From a virus, in the IMG/VR virus record IMGVR_UViG_3300005056_000005, positions 1 to 46,302 of that record: a DNA stretch of 46,302 nt. The stretch is one strand, 5' to 3'. Positions 19,619 through 44,083 of this stretch are shown here, piece by piece (position 1 is the first letter of the stretch; every line of letters begins with the position of its first letter). The position numbers were made by a program, and so were the translations under genes. The notes under the pieces are model-generated. The model was not told the DNA's origin. It was given only the letters and a program-made list of their open reading frames with translations, and did not search any database.

Positions 19619-20092
19619 CTAAGCAACCCTTACGCGAACAAGCGCGGCGGTGCCAGTTACATTTATGATTTCATCGCTATAACACATAGCCCAATCTAGG
19701 GTGGCTCCAACTGTCACCGGGATATCTGATATCTGAAGAATCCCCGCGCCGTTAACAGACAAAGGTGTCCCATGCTCAGTTATGTCATTGCCAGCAGCAA
19801 CTAGCACATTTAAAAACTCGCCAGATCTTGCTTTTATTCCAACGATAGTTTCGTTTTGCGCCCAAACATCGTCAACAGATTTTGACCTCTGTTGATCTTT
19901 GTCTGCAACAATTAACTCCCTAAAAAAAACGGTAGAATTTTTTTGACTAACGCGAAGGCCACCCGGAACGGCTTCTAAAATAGTTCCGGGTTTTGCGGTG
20001 GAGACAGTCAAAAGCCCCTCGACATTCAAAGGCTTGTGATTAGAGCCGTCCGCCGGACCAACATAGATCGATCGCTTTCCTATGATAGACAT
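19619..20092 (-). CDS. 157-aa head protein, tandem paralog 1
   Basis: See 19134..19607. The length is identical and the blocks are conserved. Confidence 0.8.
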   Translation of the reverse strand: MSIIGKRSIYVGPADGSNHKPLNVEGLLTVSTAKPGTILEAVPGGLRVSQKNSTVFFRELIVADKDQQRSKSVDDVWAQNETIVGIKARSGEFLNVLVAAGNDITEHGTPLSVNGAGILQISDIPVTVGATLDWAMCYSDEIINVTGTAALVRVRVA

Positions 20093-23984: not shown

Positions 23985-24301
23985 GTTGTCCGCCTATTCG
24001 TAGCTCTGATTTGTAAATCTTGATCGGTCAATACATTACCCCCGCCATCTTTCGCAACGATGTTAACGCGATAATTAACGCCCTCAGTTAATCCCAGCGT
24101 TGCGGATGTGACGCCACGGTAAATACTAGTAACCGAATCGAAAGGCATGGCTAACGGCCACGTTTCGCCAGTTACTTCCACGTCATCAGGATCAAAAATA
24201 GTACCCGTGACGGTAGCGTCAATGATCAGATCAGTACTACCACATGCGGTTAAATCTGAAAGCTCCAAACATGATGGGTTATCTATAAAAAGCGCTGTCA
24301 T
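23981..24301 (-). CDS. hypothetical beta-rich protein (106 aa), accessory insert
   Basis: An ORF with ATGA-type overlaps on both sides. Confidence 0.7.
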   Translation of the reverse strand: MTALFIDNPSCLELSDLTACGSTDLIIDATVTGTIFDPDDVEVTGETWPLAMPFDSVTSIYRGVTSATLGLTEGVNYRVNIVAKDGGGNVLTDQDLQIRATNRRTT

Positions 24302-25503
24302 AATATGTCAACCATGGCAGTATAAGCGGGGATTATATTCGATTGTCCCCCATAAGCTGGGAAAATGTCAATTTCAGCAGTAGCCGCGATTAATGCGGCG
24401 CCTGTTGATATCGCCGCCGCTGTACTGTCGCCAGCCTCAGCCACGTTTGCCGTGATGCTAACAATGTTATTCAGCGTGGCGCTTGTGGTGTCGCCCGCCT
24501 CGTTGACATTGGCAGTTATTTGAGATAGGCCGCCAACTGTGAGACTGGCCGCCGTGGTATCGCCAGCCTCGGCTACGTTAGCGCTAATGCTAACAATGTT
24601 ATTTAGAGTAGCTGTTGTTGTATCGCCTGCTTCGGCTTGATTGGCGGTAATGCTAACGATGGTGGCCAGTGCCGCGGTTGTGGCGTCTCCTGCTTCGGCC
24701 ACGTTAGCGTTAATACTAACAATGTTATTCAGTGCGGCGGTTGTGGCGTCTCCTGCTTCTGCTACGCTTGCGGAAACACTAACAGTAACCTCGAGGGCAG
24801 CGGATGTAGTATCACCAGCCTCATCAACGTCCGCGGTAATTGTGCTTCCGCTAGCCGCGGCTTCCTGCACTAATACAGTGGTAGGAATGCCTCGTCTCGT
24901 AGCTGATAACGTAAAAGCGCCGGGATCTTCGCTGGACACAGACGTTATCGCCCTAGTACAAAATGCTAGGGAGCATTGAGAGCCAGAGACGCCAGACCTA
25001 GTAACACCAGTGTTAATATAACTTGATGGGTAGCTATTAACGTCTGAATTGTGAGTGTCAAACGGCAATACAGCAAACGATAAAATATCCGCCGCGCCGC
25101 CGGTTACATTAACGCTCGGTGGGTCATGAGTAACAGTGTTGCCACCGTTAGTGACTGTTCCTACATCGGGGGCCTGTGTAGCAAAACTTAGGTGTCCCGA
25201 TATTCTGTACGCGCGAGCCGTGAATTCCCCGGAGACTGTAGCAGTTACCGTGATAGACGACGGCTCAGACGCTCCCGCCTGTTTATAGGCCGCTGCGCCG
25301 CTGGAAAAACCGTCGTCGTCGTTTAAATCGTATAACTCGGTATAGCCGTCTGACCATGAGACCGTGCCAGTCCCACCATTATCTCTCGATAGAAAAATAA
25401 GGACGCCCTCACCCTCAAGGGGTGAACCCGTTAAAATCGTGAATGACGTGGTAGCGTTGTCGTCATTGCTGGGAGTTTCAGCAACTATCGTGGGGGATGC
25501 CAT
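24298..25503 (-). CDS. 401-aa protein: N-terminal beta domain plus seven ~20-aa EAGD tandem repeats
   Basis: The repeats have the form I(T/S)ANVAEAGD(T/A)T(T/S)A(A/T)LNNIVS. It lies between terL and the portal gene. Confidence 0.8.
   Translation of the reverse strand: MASPTIVAETPSNDDNATTSFTILTGSPLEGEGVLIFLSRDNGGTGTVSWSDGYTELYDLNDDDGFSSGAAAYKQAGASEPSSITVTATVSGEFTARAYRISGHLSFATQAPDVGTVTNGGNTVTHDPPSVNVTGGAADILSFAVLPFDTHNSDVNSYPSSYINTGVTRSGVSGSQCSLAFCTRAITSVSSEDPGAFTLSATRRGIPTTVLVQEAAASGSTITADVDEAGDTTSAALEVTVSVSASVAEAGDATTAALNNIVSINANVAEAGDATTAALATIVSITANQAEAGDTTTATLNNIVSISANVAEAGDTTAASLTVGGLSQITANVNEAGDTTSATLNNIVSITANVAEAGDSTAAAISTGAALIAATAEIDIFPAYGGQSNIIPAYTAMVDIL
24406..24840. repeat. seven diverged ~60-bp tandem repeats (coding, EAGD repeats)
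   Basis: The recurring gctaacaatgttattyag...gtrtcgccwgcytc units are visible in the sequence. Confidence 0.8.
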
Positions 25504-28494: not shown

Positions 28495-29526
28495 TTAATC
28501 CAGCGGCTTTAACCACTGGCTGTAAATCTGCGAGGCAATATGGGCTGTCATTACCGGGGGAACACTCATGCCGATCAAGTATTGAGGTTTAATTGCTTGA
28601 AAATCATAGTCTTGAGGATAACTGCCTATCTTTTTAAGTTCAATATTTTGCAGCGCCCTTTTTTGTTTCGGGTGATAACATGAGCTGCCAGCTGTAATGG
28701 TTTTGCACACCTTCCCAGGAGATAGCTTAAACGAGTTAAACCTATTGCTTTTAGGATGCACTGACGATATTGCAGCCCCTGGCTTGCATTGGTCATAATA
28801 TTTTAAATCGCAAGGAGCTATTTTATATTCTGCATTAGTCACGATACCCTCATCAATTTCTTTAAAATATACAGGGTCTTCACTAAATTTTAGGTTTATA
28901 TCCTGTTTATAAACGTCCGATCTAACCCCGACAAAAAAAACCCTTTCTCTCGCTTGGGGTACGCCCATCGTTGCAGAATTAAGCAAAAAGACTTGCACTT
29001 TATAACCGGTCGACTCAAAATCTGATTTAATCTTTCTGGCGTATGCTTTAGCGTTTCCCTGGACCAATCCTTTAACATTCTCTAGAACGGCCGTTTTAGG
29101 TTTAAGCTTTTTTATTGTGTCGATATAAATGAAAACAAGGTCATCTAACCTCTGTTTTTTTTGCCCTTCTCTGAAATGCTTTTCTTTCCCCCACGCTTTG
29201 TCTCGACTGCCGGCCATTGAAAAGCTTGAGCAAGGCGGGGAACCATCAAGTAAGTCTAAATTATAAAGCTCCTCAGGAAGGTCGTTCCTATCATTAAAAT
29301 CCCGTATATCTTCAACATATAAATACTTTGGATTATGGTTTATTTTGTAAGCCGCAGCGACTTGAGGGTCCATTTCTACGCCGCCGAGGTGATCAAATCC
29401 GGCTAACTTATAACCCATACTCGACCCACCGCCACAAATAAACGTTCCGAACACGGTTTTATTGTGTGCTTTCACCCCTTTTGCTGGGTACCCATCTTTT
29501 AGCCACCACTCGTAAGGAAACTTCAT
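28495..29526 (-). CDS. DNA (cytosine-5)-methyltransferase
   Basis: Motif I is FICGGGSSMGY, motif IV is GSPPCSSFSMAG, motif VI is ENVKGL, motif VIII is QARERVFFVG and motif X is GMSVPPVM. Confidence 0.9.
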   Translation of the reverse strand: MKFPYEWWLKDGYPAKGVKAHNKTVFGTFICGGGSSMGYKLAGFDHLGGVEMDPQVAAAYKINHNPKYLYVEDIRDFNDRNDLPEELYNLDLLDGSPPCSSFSMAGSRDKAWGKEKHFREGQKKQRLDDLVFIYIDTIKKLKPKTAVLENVKGLVQGNAKAYARKIKSDFESTGYKVQVFLLNSATMGVPQARERVFFVGVRSDVYKQDINLKFSEDPVYFKEIDEGIVTNAEYKIAPCDLKYYDQCKPGAAISSVHPKSNRFNSFKLSPGKVCKTITAGSSCYHPKQKRALQNIELKKIGSYPQDYDFQAIKPQYLIGMSVPPVMTAHIASQIYSQWLKPLD

Positions 29527-30074
29527 ATCCCAAGCAACTTTATCAAAGCAATTTCCAAATTTTGATCAATTGCCCTAAGGGCTTCCTGAGCGGCATGGTA
29601 TTTTTCAAGATCAAGCTTAAATGTGAGCTCTATAGTATCTTCATAATCATCAACCTCGAGCTCTGAATTATTAAATATTGCATTGACCTGATCGCCGAAT
29701 TGCCCGTCATCAAATCCTAAGATATCAATATCAAAATCCAACTCCCTGAGCTCACTAATTTCTATTTCAAGCTGCTCAATATCCCATCCAGCGTTAAGGG
29801 CCAGCTGATTATCTGCAATCACGTAGGCCTTTATCTGCGTGTCTGTAAGACCCTTTAGCTCAATCGTGGGGACTTTATCCAACCCCAATTCAATGGCGGC
29901 TGAAGTTCTGCCATGACCCGCTATGATAATATTATTAGCGTCCACAAGAACCGGATTTGTAAACCCAAATTCTGTGATACTGGCGGCAATCTCGGTTATT
30001 TGTTGATCACTATGAGTCCTAGAATTATTCTCTAAATGCGTTAAATCTGCCGGGTTTTGCTCTTTTATTTCCAT
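29523..30074 (-). CDS. stand-alone ParB-like nuclease (ParBc) domain protein
   Basis: SITEFGFTNPVLVDANNIIIAGHGRTSAAIELGLDKVPTIELKGLTDTQIKAYVIADNQLALNAGWD matches the ParB-like N-domain that is usually fused to N6/N4 methylases. Confidence 0.8.
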   Translation of the reverse strand: MEIKEQNPADLTHLENNSRTHSDQQITEIAASITEFGFTNPVLVDANNIIIAGHGRTSAAIELGLDKVPTIELKGLTDTQIKAYVIADNQLALNAGWDIEQLEIEISELRELDFDIDILGFDDGQFGDQVNAIFNNSELEVDDYEDTIELTFKLDLEKYHAAQEALRAIDQNLEIALIKLLGI

Positions 30075-30109: not shown

Positions 30110-30127
30110 AATAAGCCTAAATACCTA

Positions 30128-30156
30128 TTGACGTGTGAGAACTCATAGAATACAAT
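30128..30156 (+). promoter_or_regulatory. early promoter cassette P1: TTGACG-17-TACAAT with TGAGaaCTCA palindrome in the spacer
   Basis: Near-consensus sigma70 hexamers with a 17-nt spacer. This is copy 1 of 4 of a conserved ~80-bp cassette. Confidence 0.75.
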
Positions 30157-30206
30157 AGTTTCACAGTTTGGGAATTAGCCCAGGCCAAATCAAAGGATTA
30201 GGTAAA

Positions 30207-30671
30207 ATGCGTAGATTTACAATTCATGAATATGACGATAGCTATATGTTATCAATCAATAACGACGTTATTGTATATCTTTGCCCCGGTGAATTTAAGC
30301 CTTTCATGAAGGCGAATAAATTACGAGTTGATACACCCTATTCGATATTAACGTTTCGCCGGGTTTTAAAAAACCAAATCAGTAAAGGCAGACACATTGG
30401 ACTGTGTCACGACGTAATCAGTACCGTCAGTGAAAACTTGACAAAGGAAGAAGAAAAAGAATCATTTAGAGTTTATAAAATGTTGCAAAATAAAGAGATT
30501 GATCCAACAGGGAAATTCGATGGATTGCGTATATGGAATACCAAAAATCGGACTCTAATCCCCACCCACGTTTATCACCCACACAGTCAAATGAAAGCCT
30601 GCCGAACGCTGGACTATGTCAAAAGATGTGCCGCTCTTTTCGGTGCAAAAAATCTTCAAGATAATGTTTGA
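30207..30671 (+). CDS. early hypothetical protein (154 aa from MRRFTIHEY)
   Basis: The ATG lies after the conserved leader AAATCAAAGGATTAGGTAAA. The track start at 30168 falls inside the conserved non-coding leader. Confidence 0.75.
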   Translation: MRRFTIHEYDDSYMLSINNDVIVYLCPGEFKPFMKANKLRVDTPYSILTFRRVLKNQISKGRHIGLCHDVISTVSENLTKEEEKESFRVYKMLQNKEIDPTGKFDGLRIWNTKNRTLIPTHVYHPHSQMKACRTLDYVKRCAALFGAKNLQDNV

Positions 30672-30696
30672 CGTGTGAGAACTCATGACATATAAT
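30668..30696 (+). promoter_or_regulatory. early promoter cassette P2: TTGACG-17-TATAAT with TGAGaaCTCA
   Basis: Copy 2 of 4. It overlaps the stop codon of the upstream gene. Confidence 0.75.
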
Positions 30697-30744
30697 AGTT
30701 TCAAGTTTTGGGAATAGCCCAAATTAAATCAAAAGGATTTCAAA

Positions 30745-30957
30745 ATGAACTACTTTAACGAACAGCAAATGGAATCATTACAGCTTTCCGAGTCGGTAGC
30801 CATTGCAATCAGTGAGCGGGCAAAATCTGAATCAGACGCAATGAATATCTATCATGAAGGCACTGATTGTGATTTGATCACAAACCGCGCTTTTGAATTA
30901 TCCCCAGAATCTGAATGTCTTTATTGGGGTTCTGTAACGCTTTCTAATTCAAAATAA
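30745..30957 (+). CDS. early hypothetical acidic protein (70 aa)
   Basis: An ORF after the conserved leader AAATCAAAAGGATTTCAAA. Confidence 0.7.
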   Translation: MNYFNEQQMESLQLSESVAIAISERAKSESDAMNIYHEGTDCDLITNRAFELSPESECLYWGSVTLSNSK

Positions 30958-30966
30958 TCACTAACC

Positions 30967-30987
30967 GGCCCAGGTTAAGTCTGGGCC
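30967..30987 (+). other. intergenic stem-loop GGCCCAG-gttaagt-CTGGGCC followed by the conserved RBS leader
   Basis: A perfect 7-bp stem with no U-tract, followed by AAATCAAAAGGATTTCAAAAATG. Confidence 0.6.
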
Positions 30988-31007
30988 AAATCAAAAGGAT
31001 TTCAAAA

Positions 31008-31283
31008 ATGATTACAACAGAAAGCATGCAAGACGCAGAGGACGCGATGGGCGATTACTTCTACGGCGACCACCCAAAAAAAGCCGCTGATGATGCAGCT
31101 AGTGAAAAGTGCTTTGATGCGGCCCTTTCCGAGGCTGTTAAAAATGGCGCCCAGCTAGAAGTGGAAAAATTTACTACATCGGTGGGGTTTAAAGTCGAAA
31201 TATTTAAACTTATTACTAGTAAATCTAGCAGCCTATGTATTTCTAAGCAAGACGCTATTAAATTTTGCAACTACACAGATTAA
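31008..31283 (+). CDS. early hypothetical protein (91 aa)
   Basis: An ORF after the stem-loop plus leader. Confidence 0.7.
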   Translation: MITTESMQDAEDAMGDYFYGDHPKKAADDAASEKCFDAALSEAVKNGAQLEVEKFTTSVGFKVEIFKLITSKSSSLCISKQDAIKFCNYTD

Positions 31284-31302
31284 AATAACTAGGGAAAAAA
31301 TC

Positions 31303-31428
31303 ATGAAAATATTTCTAACAGGTAAAGAAATCAAGACCCGACTGGTCATAGCAGTACAGTTAATAATACCAGCAACTCTTTTTTGCCTATTATTAATCGG
31401 CGCTGGGGTTCTTTACCTCATAACGTAA
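31303..31428 (+). CDS. possible 41-aa single-TM peptide
   Basis: My own translation gives MKIFLTGKEIKTRLVIAVQLIIPATLFCLLLIGAGVLYLIT. The SD AGGGA lies 7 nt upstream. Confidence 0.45.
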   Translation: MKIFLTGKEIKTRLVIAVQLIIPATLFCLLLIGAGVLYLIT

Positions 31429-31431
31429 AGC

Positions 31432-31460
31432 TTGACATGTGAGAACTCATGACATACAAT
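31432..31460 (+). promoter_or_regulatory. early promoter cassette P3: TTGACA-17-TACAAT with TGAGaaCTCA
   Basis: Copy 3 of 4. Confidence 0.75.
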
Positions 31461-31509
31461 GTTTATACGGTTTGGGAATTAGCCCAAGCCAAATTAAAAG
31501 GATTAAATC

Positions 31510-31788
31510 ATGTCTATAAAACTACCCCTTAATACACGCAAAAAGCTACAAGACTACCTTGTTGATATGCGCCCCTCGTCTAATCGAGCGCAAATAATAA
31601 ACATCATCAATATCCGATTGGATGACAATGAAACAATAGCGGACAGGATAATCAGGGATCACATCACTATCGGCGGAGCTTTAAGAGCCATGATGCTAAT
31701 GAATCTCGCAGGGGCCGCAACTCATAAGAGCAAAAAGCCGGACTGCTACGGTACATTCACATTCGAAGACGGAAGCACTTTTAATTAA
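31510..31788 (+). CDS. early hypothetical protein (92 aa)
   Basis: An ORF after the conserved leader AAATTAAAAGGATTAAATC. Confidence 0.7.
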   Translation: MSIKLPLNTRKKLQDYLVDMRPSSNRAQIINIINIRLDDNETIADRIIRDHITIGGALRAMMLMNLAGAATHKSKKPDCYGTFTFEDGSTFN

Positions 31789-31794
31789 CCAATA

Positions 31795-31813
31795 GCCCAG
31801 GTTAAGCCTGGGC
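31795..31813 (+). other. intergenic stem-loop GCCCAGG-ttaag-CCTGGGC followed by the conserved RBS leader
   Basis: A perfect 7-bp stem followed by CTCATCAAAAGGATTTCATTATG. Confidence 0.6.
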
Positions 31814-31833
31814 CTCATCAAAAGGATTTCATT

Positions 31834-32073
31834 ATGCCCACCATCGGACCACTGCCAAATATTGAATTAAGAGCGTGTACCGCCCAAGGCTGGTACTCAA
31901 TTTCTGTCAAACAAGCCGAAGCAATGAGCACTGAATACTTAAAAGATTATCTGCTTCTTGACCCACCATTCTCCAACTTCGGCGTATTACTCGAAGAGCT
32001 TGAATGCCGCATTGACGCCATTGAGCTGGATAAATTTTTGGCGGAAGTGGGAGAAGAAATATGCAATCAGTAA
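31834..32073 (+). CDS. early hypothetical protein (79 aa)
   Basis: An ORF after the stem-loop plus leader. Confidence 0.7.
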   Translation: MPTIGPLPNIELRACTAQGWYSISVKQAEAMSTEYLKDYLLLDPPFSNFGVLLEELECRIDAIELDKFLAEVGEEICNQ

Positions 32074-32207
32074 TAGTCCTGCGCGCCATTTTGTTAGATC
32101 ACAATTCCACCATGAATGAGTGGTGCAACAGTTACGACCGATTACAAGAAATATTGCCCCTCGATCAATTTGAAGATCTTCTTAAGGAGTACGATTTATC
32201 ATGTTAA
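32061..32207 (+). CDS. possible 48-aa protein
   Basis: My own translation gives MQSVIVLRAILLDHNSTMNEWCNSYDRLQEILPLDQFEDLLKEYDLSC. The SD is GGGAGAAG, and it overlaps the upstream stop. Confidence 0.45.
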   Translation: MQSVIVLRAILLDHNSTMNEWCNSYDRLQEILPLDQFEDLLKEYDLSC

Positions 32208-32326
32208 TAATAGCACTGTCTGTAGGACTCGTATTAGTAACAATAGCCAAAAGCAAATACAGGCCTAAGCCGCGACGTGGGGCCACACTGATTCCAATCG
32301 CATCACTACCAAGGGGAAAATCATGA
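32201..32326 (+). CDS. possible 41-aa single-TM peptide
   Basis: My own translation gives MLIIALSVGLVLVTIAKSKYRPKPRRGATLIPIASLPRGKS. It overlaps both neighbours, with ATGA at its 3' end. Confidence 0.45.
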   Translation: MLIIALSVGLVLVTIAKSKYRPKPRRGATLIPIASLPRGKS

Positions 32327-32664
32327 TTAAACCAGGAACACCCGTTAGAGTTAAGGATCTAGAGAATGATACATGGGATACAAATTTGAGGTGGCTTTAT
32401 GTTGGCCCCTTAAAAACTGGGGGACATGTGTGCGAAGCGGCTGACGGAAGGGTTTGTGAATGGAGGCATGTAGAGAGAACGCCCCGCAAATTAGTAAAGG
32501 GAGATATTGTTTACGTTGACGACGATAAAACACCTGTATTTGCAGACTTCTCCCTGGAATTCATAGGAATGTTTGAGGAATATTATGTAGTCAAGCACGC
32601 GGACAGCAATAAAATGCCGTTGCTTTTTAGATACGCAATCCACATTGATGACTTAAAGGAATAA
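32323..32664 (+). CDS. early hypothetical protein (113 aa)
   Basis: An ORF with SD AAGGGG. Confidence 0.7.
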   Translation: MIKPGTPVRVKDLENDTWDTNLRWLYVGPLKTGGHVCEAADGRVCEWRHVERTPRKLVKGDIVYVDDDKTPVFADFSLEFIGMFEEYYVVKHADSNKMPLLFRYAIHIDDLKE

Positions 32665-32666
32665 CA

Positions 32667-32927
32667 ATGTTTTTCTTTATTGATTACAAGCAGCAAACGA
32701 TTATGGCTTTTTCTAAAAAAGGGGCCGCAGCTCGTCACGGCCTCGAAATAATGGGGGTGGAAGTCTCACGGAAAGCAGACCCAGTGGCGTTATTTTTAAA
32801 GCATGAGGGCGAGAATTACGAGATTAAAAACTTAGAGAGTGCCTTCGCGTGGGTTGCTGAATCAGAAGACCCGCCAAGATTGGCGCTTATTTTAAAAAAT
32901 GCTACGGGTGAATTTTATGGAAATTAA
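32667..32927 (+). CDS. early hypothetical protein (86 aa)
   Basis: An ORF 2 nt after the upstream stop. Confidence 0.65.
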   Translation: MFFFIDYKQQTIMAFSKKGAAARHGLEIMGVEVSRKADPVALFLKHEGENYEIKNLESAFAWVAESEDPPRLALILKNATGEFYGN

Positions 32928-33297
32928 ATATAAGACAGCCGATGGTGAATATCAGTTAATCGAAACTTACTCTATACCGATTGATATTTTCCCTCAGAAC
33001 GATGTGGTGTTGGCATCCACCGGCTTGCGACTCCATAGGCTTGGAGTGCTGTCAATCCCGGCAGGTTACGAATGGGACGGGGCCACGGGCGGTATTGACA
33101 CTGATAATTTTATGCGCGGATCACTTGTTCATGATGCCTTATATGATCTTCTTGAGCGCGGAGCAATTTCTAAAAAATACCGCAAAGTGGCGGACAAAAT
33201 GCTTAGAGAAATCTGCATAGAGGACGGTATGAGCAAGTGGCGTGCGTGGCGGTCTTATATGTACGTTAGAGCGTTTGGCGGTAGATCTTGGAGATAG
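32899..33297 (+). CDS. DUF1353-like protein (start more likely ATG 32917, MEIKYKTADG)
   Basis: IPAGYEWDGATGGIDTDNFMRGSLVHDALYDLL...ADKML...YVRAFGG resembles the DUF1353 pattern. Confidence 0.6.
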   Translation: MLRVNFMEIKYKTADGEYQLIETYSIPIDIFPQNDVVLASTGLRLHRLGVLSIPAGYEWDGATGGIDTDNFMRGSLVHDALYDLLERGAISKKYRKVADKMLREICIEDGMSKWRAWRSYMYVRAFGGRSWR

Positions 33298-33318
33298 TGA
33301 TTTTAATTTATGAATCTA

Positions 33319-33347
33319 TTGACACGTGAGTACTCATGCATTAATAT
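33319..33347 (+). promoter_or_regulatory. early promoter cassette P4: TTGACA-17-TAATAT with perfect palindrome TGAGTACTCA
   Basis: Copy 4 of 4. Confidence 0.7.
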
Positions 33348-33398
33348 GGTTTCACGGTCTGGGAATTAGCCCAAATCGAATCAAACAGGATAATCATT

Positions 33399-33632
33399 AT
33401 GATCACACTAAACGACGCGGCTCAAGCATTAACTCAAGCAGGATTTACGGTTCAAATAGATAATGATACGGACGGTTTTGTAGAACTCATAGCGCATAAA
33501 GATGGGTTTTGCGAAACCTTCTTTGATGCAGACTACCAAGGACCTCAGTATCTTGGGTCCTTTAAATGCAAAGAGCTATTAGTAGCATACGCGGAAAAAT
33601 CAATCGTTCTACACAAGCGTCAATTTAGCTAA
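33399..33632 (+). CDS. early hypothetical protein (77 aa)
   Basis: An ORF after the conserved leader. Confidence 0.7.
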   Translation: MITLNDAAQALTQAGFTVQIDNDTDGFVELIAHKDGFCETFFDADYQGPQYLGSFKCKELLVAYAEKSIVLHKRQFS

Positions 33633-33639: not shown

Positions 33640-33656
33640 GCGGGGGTGATCCCCGC
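33640..33656 (+). other. intergenic stem-loop GCGGGG-gtgat-CCCCGC followed by an RBS leader variant
   Basis: A perfect 6-bp GC stem followed by ...CAATCGAAAAAGGAAACCTATG. Confidence 0.5.
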
Positions 33657-33697
33657 AATGCCCCACTGTTTGGGCGCTCAATCGAAAAAGGAAACCT

Positions 33698-33868
33698 ATG
33701 TTAATACACGAAAAAAGAGCCGCAGACGCTAAACGATCCGCTAAGGCCGACGCCAAAAAGCGTGCGGCTGGGCTGGTCCCACGCAAACACTGGATCCATA
33801 AGTCCAATCCTGAGGAGTTCAAGCGGGTGGCTGAGTTATTAAAAACTCCTAACGTTAAAATACTGTGA
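33698..33868 (+). CDS. 56-aa Lys/Arg/Ala-rich basic protein
   Basis: My own translation gives MLIHEKRAADAKRSAKADAKKRAAGLVPRKHWIHKSNPEEFKRVAELLKTPNVKIL. It has SD AAGGA and the same orientation as the operon. The 65-aa track ORF on the minus strand is antisense to it. Confidence 0.5.
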   Translation: MLIHEKRAADAKRSAKADAKKRAAGLVPRKHWIHKSNPEEFKRVAELLKTPNVKIL

Positions 33869-33887
33869 TTTTTTAGAGTGCTTTACT

Positions 33888-34076
33888 GTGGATTATTTCA
33901 AATTAGGTGATTTAGTAATAATAAATAATAGAGTGTTCAGAGTTGAGTATATATCGACAAATAAATTCTCTCATATCCCTGATGGCTTCTTACGCGAGAA
34001 AAGCGGAGCGTATCATAACCCCAAGTTTTGCAGACGATACGAAGGCGCTGAGAGCGTCCTAGAAGGGATTTTATAA
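33888..34076 (+). CDS. early hypothetical protein (62 aa, GTG start)
   Basis: An ORF in the operon with a weak RBS. Confidence 0.5.
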   Translation: MDYFKLGDLVIINNRVFRVEYISTNKFSHIPDGFLREKSGAYHNPKFCRRYEGAESVLEGIL

Positions 34077-34095
34077 AAACCGGAAGGAATAAATT

Positions 34096-34281
34096 ATGAC
34101 TATAAAAACTATTGTAAGTTGCGATGCTGCCGGATGTTCAGAAGAGCTAGAGGCTGATTTAAAATACTGGGTTCATGGGGCATTGATAACGGCTGGCTGG
34201 CTGCACTTCAATGATGGGTCTTCACAATACTGCCCAGAACACAAAGAAGCGGTGATAAAAGAAATAGGGGTCTTAAAGTGA
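34096..34281 (+). CDS. early hypothetical Cys/His protein (61 aa)
   Basis: SD GGAAGGA. The motifs CDAAGC...YCPEH suggest a small zinc-binding fold. Confidence 0.65.
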   Translation: MTIKTIVSCDAAGCSEELEADLKYWVHGALITAGWLHFNDGSSQYCPEHKEAVIKEIGVLK

Positions 34282-34508
34282 ATATCGATATAAAAGAATT
34301 TTTAGAAGAGCACGCTGGCAAAACGATGTGTTTTTCATACTATTACAAACACACATTTACCTATATTTTCCAGGAATCTGAAGACTTATATATTATAACA
34401 TGCGGAGTTATAAACGGCGGTCTTTGCCGCGAAAGATGGGCAATTGAGGAGGAGATTAGACCCATCTTAATTAACTCAATATCAACAATAACTATTAAAA
34501 ATAAATGA
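34278..34508 (+). CDS. early hypothetical protein (76 aa, GTG start overlapping the upstream stop)
   Basis: GTGA overlap. It is the last ORF before the terminator. Confidence 0.6.
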   Translation: MNIDIKEFLEEHAGKTMCFSYYYKHTFTYIFQESEDLYIITCGVINGGLCRERWAIEEEIRPILINSISTITIKNK

Positions 34509-34521: not shown

Positions 34522-34863
34522 TCAAATAGCGGCTACTAAATGCCGCTTTTTTTTCGAATTAGAAAAACCCTGAATTAACGGGTGATTTTCTGAAATGGCT
34601 TGAGCTATAACGCTGTGCTGATCGTGTTTAACAGCATACTGAATAAGATGGTTTTTAAATTCATCCATGCCGCCCATTATTCTGCTAACATTTCCAGTGG
34701 ATGTTTTGCCAAGCTCGGCCAATTCGCTTCTCTTAATAGTGTTGTAATGCCGCTCTTTTGTTAACTCGCAAGCTAAGCCGAGTATTTCACGGCGTCTAAC
34801 TGTTAATTTTTTATATTCGATAGTCATTTGTTTATTGTGACAGTGTTGTCTGTATTTGTCCAC
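34522..34863 (-). CDS. HTH DNA-binding protein (transcription regulator), last gene of the leftward operon
   Basis: HTH-like RSELAELGKTSTGNVSRIMGG. The alternative start is MTIEYKKL. Confidence 0.65.
   Translation of the reverse strand: MDKYRQHCHNKQMTIEYKKLTVRRREILGLACELTKERHYNTIKRSELAELGKTSTGNVSRIMGGMDEFKNHLIQYAVKHDQHSVIAQAISENHPLIQGFSNSKKKRHLVAAI
34528..34555 (+). terminator. rho-independent terminator (AGCGGC-tactaaat-GCCGCT-T8), possibly bidirectional between convergent operons
   Basis: A 6-bp GC-rich stem followed by TTTTTTTT. It overlaps the 3' end of the convergent minus-strand gene. Confidence 0.75.
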
Positions 34864-36094: not shown

Positions 36095-36304
36095 TTATTC
36101 CCACGCATTATTAGACCCGCTACCAGACACAAACCTGGACCCAGACCTGGACCCAGACCCAGGCCTGGACCGAGACCAAGACCCAGACCTGGACCAAGAC
36201 CTAGACCCAGAACTAGACCTAGACCAAGACCCAGAACTAGACCTTTGCCTAGTTCTAGAACCAGAACTAGAACCGGACCTTTTTAATTTATTCCTACGCA
36301 TCAT
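36095..36304 (-). CDS. Ser/Gly/Arg/Trp hexamer-repeat protein, paralog 2 (69 aa)
   Basis: MMRRNKLKRS followed by (S-G/R/W)n. SD GGGAG lies 8 nt upstream. It overlaps paralog 1 by 11 nt. Confidence 0.6.
   Translation of the reverse strand: MMRRNKLKRSGSSSGSRTRQRSSSGSWSRSSSGSRSWSRSGSWSRSRPGSGSRSGSRFVSGSGSNNAWE
36113..36280. repeat. hexanucleotide array, about 28 units of (A/G)GACCN on the plus strand
   Basis: Visible as ggacccagacctggacccagacccaggcctggaccgagaccaagaccc... Confidence 0.85.
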
Positions 36305-36515
36305 CTTTACCGCTCCCAGACCTGGACCCAGACCCAGACCTGGACCCAGACCCAGACCTGGACCGAGACCAAGACCCAGACCTGGACCCAGACCCAGACC
36401 TGGACCAAGACCTAGACCCAGATCTGGACCAAGACCTAGACCCAGATCTGGACCAAGACCAAGACCCAGAACTAGACCTAGACCAAGACCGTGCCAATTT
36501 GCTACGTTTCATCAC
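36294..36515 (-). CDS. Ser/Gly/Arg/Trp hexamer-repeat protein, paralog 1 (73 aa)
   Basis: (V)MKRSKLARS followed by SWSRSSSGSWSWSRSGSRSWSRSGSRSWSRSGSGSRSGSWSRSRSGSGSRSGSGSRSGSGKDDA. There is a strong SD AAAGGGGG 7-10 nt upstream. Confidence 0.65.
   Translation of the reverse strand: MMKRSKLARSWSRSSSGSWSWSRSGSRSWSRSGSRSWSRSGSGSRSGSWSRSRSGSGSRSGSGSRSGSGKDDA
36316..36490. repeat. hexanucleotide array, about 29 units of (A/G)GACCN on the plus strand
   Basis: Visible as ccagacctggacccagacccagacctggaccc... It is the second block of the same repeat. Confidence 0.85.
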
Positions 36516-39123: not shown

Positions 39124-40029
39124 TTAATCCGGTAGGTCGTCTAAAAATCCTGAGTCAATAACGTCCTGGGCTGCCCGCATTGATCGTTGCTGAAACTGGG
39201 CAATGGTTTCCGGTTGTCTGGGATCCGCTGGGGTTATTTTTGCTATGTTGTCCGCGAAATTTTCCATTTTCGTGCTCTCTCGGCAAATTAGCTCAATATC
39301 GTCATACACCGTTCCCTGGTCATTTTGGCCCATATGATGCGGCGATTTAGCGCAACCATCGATAGCCGATTTAATATAATCAACCGTGTAGCCATCTTTG
39401 AGTCTGTCAATGATTTTAGATTTTCGTTTTTTAGTGAGTTTTGTTTGATCGGTTTTGCCCATTCTGTAAACCCAATGATTAAATATTTCCTGAACATCAT
39501 CAGAAACCGGTATGTCGGGCTTGCTCGACAATGCTTTTGTATCTTTATCTTTATCTTTATCTTTATCTTTATCTTTATCTTTATCTTTATCTTTATCTTT
39601 ATGGTTAGAGTCTCGTTCCTTTTCCGTTGCAACACTAGCTAAACGTTCGCCCAACGTCTGTTTAACGTTCGTTGGTTTTTCGTTGGATTCCTGTTCTTTT
39701 TTACGCTTTCTGGCCGCTGCTGACGCTTTTCCACCTTTTGAAGAACTAATAGATTTGCTTAAAACGAACTCAAGATCACGGTCAATTCGGTCATGTTGCC
39801 AGTGTGTTTCAGTCACATTGAAAAATTCACTCAACACTTCCTCAACGTCCGTCCAACGTTCGTTGGACAAGCGTGCAACGCCAGCTAAACGCTTCTTAGG
39901 AATCGGTTTGCCTGTTTGCCAATAATTCATCATAAGCAGAAGATATGCCCCGTTTTCCTCCGTCGTTAAATGGAACGTATCAGCGATGTAATCGGCCACA
40001 TATAGCTGCATATAAGGTAAAGCTGCCAT
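39124..40029 (-). CDS. replication initiator-like protein: DUF1376 (YdaU) N-domain, (KD)10 linker, conserved phage C-terminal domain
   Basis: LPYMQLYVADYIADTFHLTTEENGAYLLLMMNYWQTGKPIP matches DUF1376. The C-terminal FNHWVYRMGK...KRKSKIIDRLKDGYTVDYIKSAIDGCAKSPHHMGQND resembles Phg_2220_C. Confidence 0.8.
   Translation of the reverse strand: MAALPYMQLYVADYIADTFHLTTEENGAYLLLMMNYWQTGKPIPKKRLAGVARLSNERWTDVEEVLSEFFNVTETHWQHDRIDRDLEFVLSKSISSSKGGKASAAARKRKKEQESNEKPTNVKQTLGERLASVATEKERDSNHKDKDKDKDKDKDKDKDKDKDTKALSSKPDIPVSDDVQEIFNHWVYRMGKTDQTKLTKKRKSKIIDRLKDGYTVDYIKSAIDGCAKSPHHMGQNDQGTVYDDIELICRESTKMENFADNIAKITPADPRQPETIAQFQQRSMRAAQDVIDSGFLDDLPD
39541..39600. repeat. perfect hexanucleotide microsatellite (ATCTTT)x10, encoding (KD)10 on the minus strand
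   Basis: Counted directly: 60 nt, 83% A+T. Confidence 0.95.
39631..39686. repeat. cluster I of 11-bp-phased AACGT(T/C) / CGTTGG motifs (candidate iterons)
   Basis: AACGT starts at 39642, 39653 and 39664, with a degenerate AACAC at 39631. CGTTGG occurs at 39670 and 39681. Confidence 0.5.
39844..39893. repeat. cluster II of 11-bp-phased AACG(T/C) motifs, including the palindrome CCAACGttCGTTGG (39853..39866)
   Basis: AACG starts at 39844, 39855, 39877 and 39888. Confidence 0.5.
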
Positions 40030-40043: not shown

Positions 40044-40247
40044 CTATTCAGCTTCCTTTATCCACCTGTCAAGCGCTTCTTTTTCGTATCGCACTGGTGA
40101 TGTTTTGCTCTTGCCTAGCTTTGAGTACTTTGGTGCGTCTCTACCTGCAAGAACTCCAGTAGACCTGCCTATTCTTAGTGTCCCTGGAGAGTAACCCAGG
40201 TAAATTGCAGCCTGCTTTGCCGTCAAAAACGCTCTTTCTTCACTCAT
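40044..40247 (-). CDS. small HTH DNA-binding protein (AlpA/excisionase-type fold), first gene of the leftward operon (Cro-like position)
   Basis: FLTAKQAAIYLGYSPGTLRIGR...VRYEKEALDRWI matches the HTH_17/AlpA pattern. Confidence 0.7.
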   Translation of the reverse strand: MSEERAFLTAKQAAIYLGYSPGTLRIGRSTGVLAGRDAPKYSKLGKSKTSPVRYEKEALDRWIKEAE

Positions 40248-40278
40248 TATGTTGACTCTTTATTGATTTTGAGATTAG

Positions 40279-40307
40279 ACAATAATACACGAGTTAGTAT
40301 AAGTCAA
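40279..40307 (-). promoter_or_regulatory. candidate leftward promoter TTGACT-17-TATTGT
   Basis: On the minus strand the -35 is 40307..40302 and the -10 is 40284..40279. The -35 lies inside the inverted repeat AGTATAA-N8-TTATACT (40296..40317). Confidence 0.4.
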
Positions 40308-40333
40308 CTATTATACTTTCTTGTAAATATATG

Positions 40334-40947: not shown

Positions 40948-41565
40948 ATGGACGAGCGATTTTTAAATCTGGAAGGGTTGAGGAAGCCATTCCCAGAAGA
41001 ATTTGTAGGGAAGCTGCCTAAACCTACCAAAAAGCAAACCGATGAAGTTAGGGCGGATTTCAAAAAAGGCGTGCGTTGTGTAATTTGCGGCGGATGGCAT
41101 CACCCTAACGTTATCCACCTTGATTACGTCGGCCATGCTGCATTAACTGCTAGATTGCTAGATATTGATCCAGAGTGGAACTGGGAGCCGTTGGGAACTA
41201 ATGACATAGGATTACCTGTACTTGATAAAGACGGGCTGCTATGGATTAAATTGACAGTGTGCGGATTAACCCGAATTGGTTGTGGTGATGCTGGAAACAA
41301 GACTGGTGGTGATGCAATGAAAGAGCGCATCGGTGACGCTCTAAGAAACGCTGGCATGAGGTTTGGGCTAGCCTTGGACCTATGGCATAAGGAGGGAGGG
41401 TTGCCGGTAGGTGAGTCATTTGAAGAGCCTGCGGTTATTTCTGATGAAAATATTAAAAGGATTAAAGAAGGTAGCAAAAATGGTGCAAGCATCTCACAAA
41501 TAGCACATAGATTAAAACTAACTGAAAAAGAAGTTAAAACCGTATTGGAGAATAAAGATGGGTAA
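40948..41565 (+). CDS. putative ssDNA-annealing recombinase (Rad52/DUF1071-like)
   Basis: [38 protein letters not shown]...[26 protein letters not shown]. It lies directly upstream of ssb. The family is recalled, not searched. Confidence 0.5.
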
Positions 41566-42055
41566 AGGCGTTAACAAAGTAATAATTGTCGGGAATTTGG
41601 GTCAAGATCCAGAGGTTAAATATATGCCCAGCGGCGACTGTATAGCTAATATATCAATAGCTACCAGCGAATCTTGGAAAGACAAGCAGACAGGTCAACA
41701 GCAAGAGCGTACCGAGTGGCATCAGGCATGTTTTTTTGGAAGACTTGCTGAAATAGCTAGGGATTATTTAAAAAAAGGCGCTAAGGTTTACATAGAAGGG
41801 TCTCTAAGAACAAGAAAATGGAAAGATAAGCAGACAGGTCAGGACAGATATAGTACTGATATTGTGGTTAAGGAAATGCAAATGTTAGACAGTAGAGGCG
41901 ACAACCCGCAGCCCGGACAGCAGCCCGGACAGCAGCCTAGCCAACCGCAACAACAGAGCCAGCAGCAGAGCCAGCAGCAGCCGCAACAGAATCAAGGGTA
42001 TCAGCCTGCTGGTCCTGATGTTGGGGATGCTTTTGATGACGATATCCCATTCTAA
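41558..42055 (+). CDS. ssb: single-stranded DNA-binding protein
   Basis: The OB-fold N-terminus [21 protein letters not shown]...TEWH, the Gln/Pro-rich linker and the acidic tail DDDIPF are all present. Confidence 0.95.
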
Positions 42056-42309: not shown

Positions 42310-42337
42310 ACCATATTGTTAGCGCCAGCAATATGGT
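42310..42337 (+). other. stem-loop ACCATATTG-N10-CAATATGGT (copy 1 of 3)
   Basis: A perfect 9-bp stem immediately upstream of leader copy 1. Confidence 0.6.
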
Positions 42338-42343
42338 TTGGTA

Positions 42344-42370
42344 AATAACAACACATTAAAGGATAAGAAA
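42344..42370 (+). repeat. conserved leader AATAACAACACATTAAAGGATAAGAAA, copy 1 of 8
   Basis: It directly precedes ATG 42371. Confidence 0.8.
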
Positions 42371-42568
42371 ATGGATGAAGGTAGGAACAGAGGAAAGTGT
42401 CCTAAGTGTCGATGTAAGAAGGTTAACATCTACGACCACCCCACCGTCTTGCGCCCTGATCAATATACAGAGTACAGTTGTGAAAATTGTGGGTGGCTTG
42501 TTGGTATGATTGACAATTCGCCCTATGTTAGTTGTTACGATTTTGAAGATTTTGTAATAGAAATATAA
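42371..42568 (+). CDS. small zinc-ribbon protein (65 aa from MDEGRNRGKCPKC)
   Basis: CPKC...CENC motifs. The start is set by the conserved leader; the track start at 42338 lies inside the leader. Confidence 0.7.
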   Translation: MDEGRNRGKCPKCRCKKVNIYDHPTVLRPDQYTEYSCENCGWLVGMIDNSPYVSCYDFEDFVIEI

Positions 42569-42590
42569 AAACACATTAAAGGATAAGAAA
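42567..42590 (+). repeat. conserved leader, copy 2 (AAAAACACATTAAAGGATAAGAAA)
   Basis: It directly precedes ATG 42591. Confidence 0.8.
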
Positions 42591-42782
42591 ATGAGCGACG
42601 TAAAAAAAACAATTCTAGATTCAATCGACGATGTTGTTGGTGATTTTATGTATTACGATAGAAAAGAGGACGAGGATTTGCCATTGGGCGCAATAGAGGA
42701 GGCCTTAAAAGCAGGAGATATCACATACAATGAAATTGTAGACAGATTCAAACAGAAAATATATGAAGTGCTTAGTTTATGA
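42591..42782 (+). CDS. hypothetical acidic protein (63 aa)
   Basis: An ORF after leader copy 2. Confidence 0.7.
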   Translation: MSDVKKTILDSIDDVVGDFMYYDRKEDEDLPLGAIEEALKAGDITYNEIVDRFKQKIYEVLSL

Positions 42783-42785
42783 TTT

Positions 42786-42809
42786 ATCAATACATTAAAG
42801 GATAAGAAA
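42786..42809 (+). repeat. conserved leader, copy 3 (ATCAATACATTAAAGGATAAGAAA)
   Basis: It directly precedes ATG 42810. Confidence 0.8.
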
Positions 42810-43760
42810 ATGAGTGAAGACAAATCTAGTCTTGAGATAGTACTAGAACAAACTAGCGCTTTAGTGGTGTTTAAAAAAGATGGAGTAGAGAATCTTGTTA
42901 GTAAGATCGAGGACGAAGTCAGAAGTGTTGTGCATGATGTTACAACAAAAAACGGCAGGAAGGAAATGGCTTCTCTTGCCTATAAAGTTAGCTGTTCTAA
43001 GACTGCATTAGACGCCCTTGGAAAAGATTTAGTGGCTGAATGGAAAGCAAAGTCTAAGGCGGTAGACTCGGATCGAAAGAAAATAAGAGATAGACTTGAC
43101 GCCTTGAGGGATGAAGTTAGAAATCCATTAACTGAATGGGAAGCGGTGGAAAAAGCCAAAGTTGAAAAAGAAAAATTAGAGACTGAAAAAGCCAAAGCGC
43201 AAGAATTCGCAATAGATGAAAACGATTTATTTGATAGGCAAAAGGCGATCGAATTAAAAGAAGAAGAGCAGCGGCAAGCAGAGTTAAAGCGCATTGAGGA
43301 AGAGGGGGTGGCCAAGGCTGAAAAAGAACAGCGCGAACGAGAAGAGAGATTATTGAGCAAGGCGGCAGAGGAGGCTAAAGAGGAAGCTCAGCGTAAGGCA
43401 CAGCAGGCAAAGGTTGACGCAGAAGAGCGACTGAATGAAGAGCGTGAAGCTAAGCAAAAAGCTCAGTGGAAGGCGGAACAGGAAAAGGTTTTGGCGGAAG
43501 AGCGCAGAATTAAAGACCTTGAAGAACAAGAAGAACGACTAAAAAAAGAGCACAAAGCCAAGGAAGCGGAACGCCTAAAAAAAGAGGCTGACGAACGAGA
43601 AAAGGCAGAAATAAAAGCAGCCGATAAAAAAAATCAAAGAATTATTAACAACGAAATATTAGCTTCCCTTCAATCTATTGGGATAAGCGAGGAACATTCT
43701 AGATTGATAATCACTAAAGTGGCCAGAAATGAAATTCCAAAGTTGAAAATAATTTACTGA
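42810..43760 (+). CDS. Glu/Lys-rich coiled-coil protein (316 aa), DUF1351-like?
   Basis: A long EKAKxE-type helical region. The N-terminal block LAYKVSCSKTALDALGKDLVAEWKAKSKAVDSDRKKIRDRLDALRDEV resembles DUF1351 proteins found near phage recombinases. Confidence 0.7.
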   Translation: MSEDKSSLEIVLEQTSALVVFKKDGVENLVSKIEDEVRSVVHDVTTKNGRKEMASLAYKVSCSKTALDALGKDLVAEWKAKSKAVDSDRKKIRDRLDALRDEVRNPLTEWEAVEKAKVEKEKLETEKAKAQEFAIDENDLFDRQKAIELKEEEQRQAELKRIEEEGVAKAEKEQREREERLLSKAAEEAKEEAQRKAQQAKVDAEERLNEEREAKQKAQWKAEQEKVLAEERRIKDLEEQEERLKKEHKAKEAERLKKEADEREKAEIKAADKKNQRIINNEILASLQSIGISEEHSRLIITKVARNEIPKLKIIY

Positions 43761-43788
43761 ACCATATTGCTAGCGTCAGCAATATGGT
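43761..43788 (+). other. stem-loop ACCATATTGCT-agcgtc-AGCAATATGGT (copy 2 of 3)
   Basis: A perfect 11-bp stem that begins 1 nt after the upstream stop. Confidence 0.6.
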
Positions 43789-43801
43789 GCGGATAGTAAT
43801 A

Positions 43802-43828
43802 AATAACAACACATTAAAGGGGATGAAA
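43802..43828 (+). repeat. conserved leader, copy 4 (AATAACAACACATTAAAGGGGATGAAA)
   Basis: It directly precedes ATG 43829. Confidence 0.8.
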
Positions 43829-43999
43829 ATGGATAAGTGTAGCCCTGTAGAAATGAGAAAGAATCTATGTCTTGTAGATGAGTTTGTAAAAGCTGGCATT
43901 GATTTTGTAGCTATTCCAGCGTTGAGCGATAGTGACAAAGCAGCACTAATTAATCAGCAAAATACCGCTTTAACTAAAGCGATAGAGTCATGTGAATAA
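43829..43999 (+). CDS. hypothetical protein (56 aa from MDKCSPVEM)
   Basis: The start is set by analogy with the other leader copies. Confidence 0.65.
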   Translation: MDKCSPVEMRKNLCLVDEFVKAGIDFVAIPALSDSDKAALINQQNTALTKAIESCE

Positions 44000-44014
44000 C
44001 AACACATTAAAGGG
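43995..44014 (+). repeat. conserved leader, copy 5 (AATAACAACACATTAAAGGG), not followed by an ATG
   Basis: It runs directly into the gene remnant at 44015. Confidence 0.75.
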
Positions 44015-44083
44015 GTGCAAGGCGAGCACTACCCATGCAAGCCTGATATTTTTTCAGCAACTTATGATGTGGTAGAGGCATAA
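44015..44083 (+). pseudogene. probable 3' remnant of a small phage gene (reads ...IKGVQGEHYPCKPDIFSATYDVVEA*)
   Basis: It has only 22 codons from a GTG. GE.YPCKPDIF..TY..V matches the C-terminal signature of a small phage protein family as I recall it. No N-terminal part is present. Confidence 0.4.

Follow-up and report, generated by a model that had tools for sequence, protein, structure and literature searches.

According to the modular theory of phage evolution, exchangeable genes should be joined by conserved linkers, a prediction for which the promoter-early-stem-loop (PeSL) units of T4-like phages are the main worked example. A PeSL comprises an AT-rich tract, sigma-70 -35 and -10 boxes, a stable stem-loop that is variably placed, mostly between the two boxes, and a Shine-Dalgarno region reaching up to the ATG, and many copies occur among orphan open reading frames (ORFans) in the hyperplastic regions of T4-like phages (PMC2839356, PMC4122927). 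The stem-loop is a terminator, and recombination between units leads to insertions and deletions (indels) and to mini-circles (PMC2839356, PMC4122927). In the mini-circle experiments, crossovers mapped between the -10 box and the ATG, and a role in recombination was speculated for the GGGG..CCCC stems (PMC2839356). In the literature that we searched, PeSLs are described for T4-like phages only. Here we describe a repeated promoter-leader unit in the IMG/VR virus record IMGVR_UViG_3300005056_000005, the whole 46,302 nt of which were analyzed (hereafter, the window). Four plus-strand units, at 30124-30206, 30664-30744, 31428-31509, and 33315-33398 (cassettes 1 to 4, or c1 to c4), are probably copies of one portable expression cassette that combines expression, regulation, and recombination of the genes placed behind it.

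Anatomy of the Four Cassettes

An earlier note on this DNA, made from the sequence without database searches, had described four ~80-nt units with a promoter, a palindrome in the promoter spacer, and a 5' leader, and all four were found at the above positions, each with sigma-70 promoter anatomy followed by a leader. In cassette 1, the -35 box (TTGACG, 30128-30133) and the -10 box (TACAAT, 30151-30156) enclose the dyad TGAGAACTCA (30136-30145), and a hairpin (30168-30183) and the Shine-Dalgarno sequence AAAGGA (30192-30197) lead to the ATG at 30207. Cassette 2 has its -35 box (TTGACG) at 30668-30673, its dyad at 30676-30685, its -10 box (TATAAT) at 30691-30696, a hairpin with the loop AATAG at 30707-30723, the Shine-Dalgarno sequence at 30732-30737, and the ATG at 30745. 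The same order is seen in cassette 3 (-35 TTGACA, 31432-31437; dyad, 31440-31449; -10 TACAAT, 31455-31460; hairpin with a z-score of -3.6, 31469-31490; Shine-Dalgarno, 31497-31502; ATG, 31510) and in cassette 4 (-35 TTGACA, 33319-33324; -10 TAATAT, 33342-33347; hairpin, 33355-33378; ATG, 33399), where the dyad is the perfect TGAGTACTCA (33327-33336) and the Shine-Dalgarno-like sequence is ACAGGA (33385-33390).

The copies had been called near-identical, which overstates their likeness, as pairwise identity from the -35 box to the ATG is 72-84% (58/81 to 67/82). With cassette 1 as the BLAST query, the other three copies are nevertheless retrieved at E = 2e-17 to 5e-12, the next match in the window having E = 0.1. 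Similarity among the copies begins ~2 nt upstream of the -35 box and extends as far as the ATG; because it is confined to the stretch from just before TTGAC to ATG, each copy corresponds to one promoter plus one 5' untranslated region (UTR). The spacer is 17 nt long in all four copies, which is the optimal length, and the boxes match the sigma-70 consensus at 10-11 of 12 positions, so that the cassettes fall within the 16 sites of the genome, on either strand, that score at least 10/12. The 24-nt flanks upstream of the -35 box are 62-79% A+T, compared with 55% for the genome; they are unconserved among the copies and are partly made up of the 3' end of the preceding gene. At its 3' end, each unit carries a Shine-Dalgarno sequence that leads into a small open reading frame (ORF) at its start codon, and the four copies lie within 3.3 kb.

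This anatomy suggests that each cassette provides a strong host sigma-70 promoter, a short leader with a hairpin near the predicted start, and a conserved A-rich Shine-Dalgarno region up to the ATG, and that the cassettes drive an accessory block of small genes of unknown function on the plus strand at 30.1-34.5 kb. A cassette would thus bring about transcription and translation of whatever gene comes next, and the quality of the promoters is what points to early expression. As in PeSLs, a repeated unit with an upstream flank, sigma-70-like boxes, an inverted repeat, and a Shine-Dalgarno region reaching the ATG stands before small ORFans in a variable region. Unlike the PeSL-bearing genomes, the window is that of a 46-kb myovirus unrelated to T4, with four copies of a unit that is unrelated to PeSLs in sequence.

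Cargo Exchange and Mosaic Cassettes

Apart from the window, the cassette is known in three further lineages, all metagenomic, and the clade is small. The L001 lineage (loci L001, L003, L086, L125/L128, L129, and L131-L135) is ~95-96% identical to the window and is represented by at least five independent assemblies, including two ~47-kb contigs. The L085 lineage (~80-86% identity) consists of a 3.4-kb contig (L085) in a Phycisphaerales metagenome-assembled genome, in which it is probably mis-binned, and a JGI contig (L087) from the same sample as L001. The L127 lineage (72-80% identity) is known from one locus, in Logan SRR16035809. Since two lineages were assembled from one sample, and assemblers may join strains at shared repeats, some junctions could be strain chimeras. 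However, at least five assemblies, each time from other samples, show the arrangement of L001, and two show that of L085; the main arrangements are thus replicated and are not an assembly artefact.

The earlier note had proposed comparing relatives to see whether the cassettes are kept while the cargo between them differs, and the outcome of this comparison is positive: cassettes are conserved in all four lineages, with breakpoints or mosaic junctions in or at the cassettes. Behind cassette 1, the window carries gA (30207-30671), whose 154-amino-acid (aa) product has no family match, L001 carries an unrelated 116-aa gene (gZ), and L085 carries an unrelated 86-aa gene; this slot is not covered in L127. 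Behind cassette 3 (cassette c in the relatives), the window and L001 share gE (31510-31788, 92 aa), and L085 has a gene with a gZ-like C-terminus, L127 again not covering the slot. The C-terminal 106 residues of this L085 product are 74% identical to gZ, and therefore one cargo occupies different slots in two lineages. Behind cassette 4, the window has gX (33399-33632) and L127 has the cassette followed by an unrelated 79-aa gene; L001 lacks the cassette and most of gX, and L085 does not cover the slot. Two genes behind cassette 2, gB (30745-30957, 70 aa) and gD (31303-31428, a 41-aa membrane peptide), are kept in all lineages that cover the region, and gC between them (31008-31283, 91 aa) is absent from L085 together with its stem-loop unit.

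The cassettes of the relatives are themselves mosaics. One L001 copy (L001_a) joins the flank (20/20) and promoter (28/29) of cassette 1 to a hairpin segment resembling that of cassette 4 (27/29, versus 23/29 to cassette 1). Another (L001_b) has the upstream flank of cassette 4 (17/20, versus 5/20 to its positional counterpart, cassette 2), the promoter (28/29) and hairpin (27/29) of cassette 1, and the 3' leader of cassette 2 (24/25) running into gB. To arise, these patterns need crossovers in three zones, namely the -35 edge, the interval from the -10 box to the hairpin, and the vicinity of the Shine-Dalgarno sequence, and this heterogeneity of the crossover points suggests homologous rather than site-specific recombination. 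Neither an integrase or recombinase (among the ORFs scanned) nor a fixed crossover point, as in integron-like cassettes, was found. Of the 16 positions at which L001 and L125 differ over 3.6 kb, 12 are packed into the 200 nt around cassette c, six of them in the cassette itself (Fisher p = 4e-4), and this cluster looks like a conversion patch.

It could be argued that these are ordinary duplicated promoters that are kept for expression and have no special role in exchange, with indels surviving only in intergenic DNA. Breakpoints in phage genomes are generally intergenic, the gC and c4+gX differences do not have cassettes on both sides, and an unrelated promoter-leader duplicate in L115, a distant relative by large terminase (TerL), suggests that such duplications arise readily. 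However, duplication for expression alone would leave unexplained the three-way mosaics in the relatives, which require crossovers inside the cassettes, the occurrence of one cargo gene in different slots, and the clustering at a cassette of the differences between two 99.6%-identical genomes. We regard this explanation as quite improbable and prefer to view the units as a portable cassette.

Viewed in this way, the cassettes resemble PeSLs in that single ORFs have been inserted, deleted, or replaced between close relatives, with the changes ending in the units (gC and c4+gX excepted), and in that crossovers fall between the -10 box and the ATG, by experiment in PeSLs and by mosaic cassettes here. 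The likeness to PeSLs that the earlier note had drawn thus stands at the level of function, in the promoter, the location, the breakpoints, and the leader crossovers, but not as membership of the T4 type, given the non-T4 genome, the hairpin in the 5' UTR, and the lack of a terminator signature. Lambdoid phages reportedly carry morons, promoter-plus-gene units described by Hendrix and colleagues, and cassette 4 with gX is likewise a promoter-plus-gene unit between two genes that are adjacent in L001. It differs from morons in having no terminator of its own, a promoter from a repeated family, and a right end inside a gene.

Several further differences between the lineages were noted in this region. 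L086 starts 5 nt before its first cassette with ACCTA, as in the flank of cassette 1, and not with ATCTA as in L001_b; its first cassette differs from L001_b at five positions, the rest of the contig being 99.3% identical. Yet another arrangement, or conversion at this slot, is weakly hinted at by these differences. The gene beside cassette 1 also varies: in the window, a C5 DNA methylase (28495-29526) and a 183-aa ParB_N protein (29523-30074) are encoded separately, both on the minus strand and together spanning 28495-30074, L001 has a 407-aa fusion of ParB_N with an N6/N4 methyltransferase (5313-6536), and L085 has a terminase-small-subunit-like gene (1370-1954). Immediately upstream of the -35 box of cassette 1, ~34 nt (from window position 30094) are conserved in the window, L001, and L085. 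Lastly, the window gene 33888-34076 (33874-34080) is found elsewhere and inverted in L127 (reverse complement, 6026-6235) with 81% identity, which is another relocation of a single gene.

A Constrained Dyad in the Promoter Spacer

The sequence GTGAG(A/T)ACTCAT, with the palindrome TGAGnnCTCA, had been pointed out in the four spacers, and within the 46-kb window it indeed occurs only at the four cassettes. A search allowing two mismatches gave no excess over chance, with 12 matches versus 7.9 expected, and none of the extra matches is intergenic. TGAGnnCTCA occupies spacer positions 4-13 in every copy, where it overlaps the region bound by RNA polymerase. In binding-probe form, the dyad-bearing sequence reads GTGAGAACTCAT.

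We compared the spacers of 12 distinct cassette copies from the four lineages, in which the neighboring genes are 72-96% identical. None of the 24 positions of the upstream flank is invariant, compared with four of six in the -35 box, 10 of 17 in the spacer, and four of six in the -10 box. The ten invariant spacer positions are exactly GTGAG.ACTCA (positions 3-13), the center of which is A or T, and the remaining seven spacer positions all vary; in L127, a change of the flanking T to C gives GTGAGAACTCAC, which is symmetric over 12 bp. The sequence of sigma-70 promoter spacers is normally free. Since adjacent spacer positions have drifted, homogenization among the copies cannot account for the invariance of the dyad, and conservation beyond the needs of the promoter that is not explained by homogenization marks the dyad as a selected site. 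Thus, the constraint implied by the earlier suggestion of a spacer operator is borne out, and the pattern of conservation indicates a constrained site such as an operator in the spacer.

We rejected the dyad as a hairpin or terminator, as it offers only a 4-bp stem with a 2-nt loop; because such a structure cannot fold, a protein site is the natural reading. In this respect the spacer inverted repeat differs from the stem-loop of PeSLs, being an invariant 10-12-bp dyad whose length does not suffice for folding and which has more the look of a protein site. Operators inside promoter spacers are well known, including the Arc operator in Pant of phage P22 and sites for TetR and LexA. [quoted passage not shown] Boxes for LexA, CRP, Fur, and C proteins, compared by eye only, do not fit the dyad.

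Alternatively, the dyad might be a site for a phage-modified RNA polymerase or an activator, or a recombination element, rather than a repressor operator. [quoted passage not shown] We nevertheless consider it unlikely, since a promoter whose two boxes are this close to consensus would not need an activator, a 4-bp stem with a 2-nt loop gives no stable hairpin and makes a PeSL-like structural role improbable, and the inferred crossovers lie at several places other than the dyad, contrary to what is expected of a target for site-specific recombination. We therefore return to the operator as the favored role of the dyad in what follows.

The Leader Hairpin

In every copy, the transcribed leader folds into a hairpin past the -10 box, with a stem of 5-9 bp closing an AAUUAG loop. 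Across 11 copies, 84.8% of the cells pair, and four of the nine pairs have changed on both sides; outer stems such as GGUUU/AAGCC, GAUCU/AGAUU, GAUUU/AAAUC, and CCACUU/AAGUGG illustrate how the pairing is conserved. Sliding the structure by one column reduces pairing to ~50%. The covariation score of the 11 copies was equalled in 9 of 500 shuffles, and that of a 9-copy set is indistinguishable from shuffles, so that the support from covariation is modest.

Assuming a transcription start 7 nt after the -10 box, the stem would begin 2-5 nt from the 5' end. A stem-loop within a few nucleotides of the 5' end, as in ompA-type leaders, is the protective geometry in mRNA decay in E. coli. Most likely, the hairpin would shield the mRNA at its 5' end, or else its conserved AAUUAG loop would be bound by an RNA factor; a protein might also bind this loop. 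No Rfam family matches the leader, and neither the cassette hairpins nor the intergenic hairpins are followed by a T run or called as terminators. This is a further difference from PeSLs, as the stable hairpin here comes after the -10 box in the transcribed leader, with an AAUUAG loop, no T run, and no signature of a terminator or attenuator.

Promoter-Less Leader Units

In addition to the cassettes, leader units that lack a promoter stand between the cargo genes. The earlier note had listed three perfect GC-rich stem-loops that carry the same leader; all three stem-loops exist, and the leader AAATCAAAAGGATTTCA (family D14) is common to the first and second, at 92% identity, but the third is only loosely similar. 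The first unit (30967-31007, plus strand) consists of the hairpin GGCCCAG..CTGGGCC at 30967-30987 followed by AAATCAAAAGGATTTCAAAAATG, and the second (31795-31833, plus strand) begins with a hairpin at 31795-31813. Both units carry the 3' half of the cassette leader behind this other, GC-rich hairpin. The third (33640-33697, plus strand) contains two hairpins, the second placed between the stem-loop at 33640-33656 and the Shine-Dalgarno region, and then CAATCGAAAAAGGAAACCTATG. The intergenic GC-rich stem-loops were considered as intrinsic terminators and rejected for lack of a T run.

A second leader family, unrelated to the cassette, is present at 42310-45058, where eight copies of (T)AAATAACAACACATTAAAGGATAA..ATG (families D4, D7, and D10) directly precede start codons, three of the eight being preceded by the hairpin ACCATATTG..CAATATGGT. 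No sigma-70-like promoter was found in this unit. Homology between the window and L125 stops exactly inside one of these copies, at ~42590, and the cargo differs beyond it. Conserved leaders are therefore used as points of exchange outside the cassette region as well. Cluster K mycobacteriophages have start-associated sequences, that is, conserved short leaders directly upstream of many start codons, and the promoter-less units described here are similar in this respect, especially the family at 42.3-45.1 kb. They differ in that the sequences and the host group are unrelated and that the leaders coincide with gene-content breakpoints.

A Model for the Cassettes and Its Difficulties

Beyond expression of the gene that follows, our model assigns two further functions to the cassette. 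One regulator would serve all slots, a dimer on GTGAG-N-ACTCA, in the spacer that separates the -35 box from the -10 box, excluding RNA polymerase from the promoter. Moreover, each copy would offer ~80 nt of homology for recombination, by which single-gene cargo could be deleted, inserted, or relocated with its expression unbroken. The window encodes a single-strand annealing protein (40948-41565, plus strand; phrog_3290), an SSB (41558-42055, plus strand; phrog_44), and a NinB-like protein, and the related contig L125 encodes ERF, a YqaJ exonuclease, and SSB; the annealing protein and SSB would probably catalyze the exchange of cassettes. A more elaborate version, which we put forward only tentatively and hold to be somewhat unlikely in full, is a plug-in slot in which a phage dimer reads TGAG-N2-CTCA and a second factor reads the AAUUAG loop, so that a recombined gene would be automatically expressed and then shut off on schedule, with exchange occurring via the cassettes or via mini-circles made by the phage annealing protein.

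Two proteins had been offered as candidate helix-turn-helix (HTH) regulators. For the product of 40044-40247, the assignment is borderline, with an HTH_17 match of 25.0 bits that is just under the Pfam cut-off of 27. For the 113-aa product of 34522-34863, it is not supported by the databases; this protein probably begins at Met13 and has the look of a TetR-type HTH protein, as judged by eye only. The gE product looks ribbon-helix-helix-like by eye, and had no match above threshold in Pfam, NCBIfam, PHROGs, or PDB sequence searches.

A number of observations count against the model. The cassette is known from only four lineages, all metagenomic and two of them co-occurring in one sample, and it is missing from phages at 54-75% TerL identity. 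The start sites, timing, and strength of the promoters are all predicted from sequence, and the covariation of the hairpin comprises few independent events. The gC indel is bounded by a 7-nt AAAATAA microhomology and not by cassettes or stem-loops, and the c4+gX difference has its right boundary within the 3' end of gX. As for regulation, a 10-bp dyad is short for a classical HTH operator, and no DNA-binding protein could be tied to it using Pfam, NCBIfam, PHROGs, PDB sequence searches, and models of the candidates. The AlphaFold model of the 113-aa protein is weak, with a predicted local distance difference test (pLDDT) score of 62, and a Foldseek search of the PDB with it gave no match below E = 1, XRE and TetR regulators topping the list; the model of gE (pLDDT 40) is unusable. 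The sole match of gY (33698-33868), to the NCBIfam "plasmid repression protein F" (UrfF), has E = 0.0055 and is far below threshold.

The same linker logic as in PeSLs appears in an unrelated 46-kb phage with an unusually clean record of exchange, the principle itself being already known and the phage uncultured. If the plug-in reading is true, PeSL-type shuffling would reach a small genome and would be supplemented by a regulatory address that PeSLs are not known to have. Should the dyad prove to be an operator, genes for host takeover or anti-defence would gain their expression and their regulation together, as soon as they are inserted. The ORFans that fill the variable slots suggest themselves as candidates for host- or defence-specific functions.

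Distribution and Lifestyle

Searches beyond the four lineages indicate a narrow distribution. The cassette was not found in 80 loci fetched via the ParB_N protein or in 37 fetched via TerL, and in most of these loci the 20 kb retrieved hold no other repeated cassette either. Two DNA-pattern scans of metagenome contigs gave no further copies, and a pattern scan of genome contigs gave the single 3.4-kb contig. Two matches in viral contigs (L002 and L004) were discarded as chance matches within GC-rich coding DNA. A DNA search of cultured phages found similarity confined to the methylase and ParB. The absence of the cassette from the relatives with 54-75% TerL identity marks it as a young, clade-specific feature. 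It is worth noting that L115 carries its own 106-nt promoter-leader duplicate (745-850 and 986-1091), with copies that are 99% identical and lead to two different start codons; as this duplicate is unrelated in sequence to the cassette, such promoter-leader duplications may arise repeatedly in the wider phage group.

The closest cultured relative by TerL is Vibrio phage 1.210.O (48 kb), whose genome organization is different, followed by Klebsiella and Edwardsiella prophages. The latter raise the question of whether the cassettes are immunity-controlled promoters of a temperate or plasmid-like phage, in which a maintenance repressor would have the dyad as its operator, and the lysogen would express or silence the genes, which would then not be early genes of lytic growth. 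The genome also encodes ParB_N and an HTH_17/excisionase-like protein and has a divergent promoter region at 40247-40331. Yet the dyad is absent from this divergent region at 40.2-40.3 kb, where the switch would be expected, and there is no integrase or cI-like repressor among the ORFs scanned. Moreover, the relatives are all free contigs of ~47 kb and none is a prophage, genome contigs having given just a 3.4-kb contig. We therefore give very little credence to control by immunity.

Genome Organization

Bases 1-99 of the window recur exactly at 46204-46302, and this 99-nt terminal repeat at both ends indicates a complete genome, either circularly closed or a terminally redundant assembly, of ~46.2 kb with 44.9% G+C. 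PHROG and Pfam scans place the genes for TerL, portal, capsid, tail sheath, and tape measure on the minus strand, from ~28.1 kb down to 0.1 kb, and this structural gene set identifies the phage as a myovirus. The plus-strand block of small genes with the cassettes (30.1-34.5 kb) is flanked by the packaging and structural genes on one side and by the replication genes on the other, the latter forming a minus-strand block (34.5-40.2 kb) with HTH_17, DUF1376 primosomal/initiator, DUF6475, and NinB-like genes. By PHROG annotation, the replication module is lambda-like. A further plus-strand block, with the annealing protein, SSB, and more small genes, starts at 40.3 kb. A stem-loop with T runs on both strands (34528-34547), between convergent genes ending at 34508 and 34522, is the sole terminator-like site closing the plus-strand cassette region.

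As the earlier note had stated, the cargo genes are unknowns, without Pfam or PHROGs matches save for 32899-33297 (DUF1353 / phrog_1158), and all are on the plus strand. Behind cassette 3, gE is followed by genes at 31834-32073, 32061-32207, 32323-32664, and 32667-32927, a second 41-aa membrane peptide (32201-32326), and the DUF1353 gene. Behind cassette 4, gX is followed by gY, which encodes a basic 56-aa protein and is kept in L001 and L127, and by genes at 33888-34076, 34096-34281, and 34278-34508.

Other repeats in the genome lie outside the cassette region. Two tandem paralogous 157-aa genes (19134-19607 and 19619-20092) share 71-78% DNA identity and adjoin, on its minus-strand upstream side, the gene 18064-19122, the product of which is a head-and-packaging virion structural protein according to PHROGs. 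The 401-aa ORF 24298-25503, which has no PHROG match, contains 63-nt tandem repeats at 24422-24805, and this stretch is its most divergent part among the relatives. At 36133-36490, ~60 degenerate copies of a 6-nt ACCTAG-like unit run across the minus-strand ORFs 36294-36515 and 36095-36304, whose products consist almost entirely of Arg-Ser, Gly-Ser, and Trp-Ser repeats, an unusual low complexity for an operon in the replication region of a phage. Finally, 10.5 perfect copies of TATCTT are present at 39540-39602 inside the DUF1376 initiator gene (39124-40029, minus strand), adjoined by repeated CAACGTTCGTTGG-type motifs (family D9), the whole stretch covering 39528-39877. The array and the CAACGTTCGTTGG-type motifs are possibly an origin with iterons inside the initiator gene, as in lambda O.

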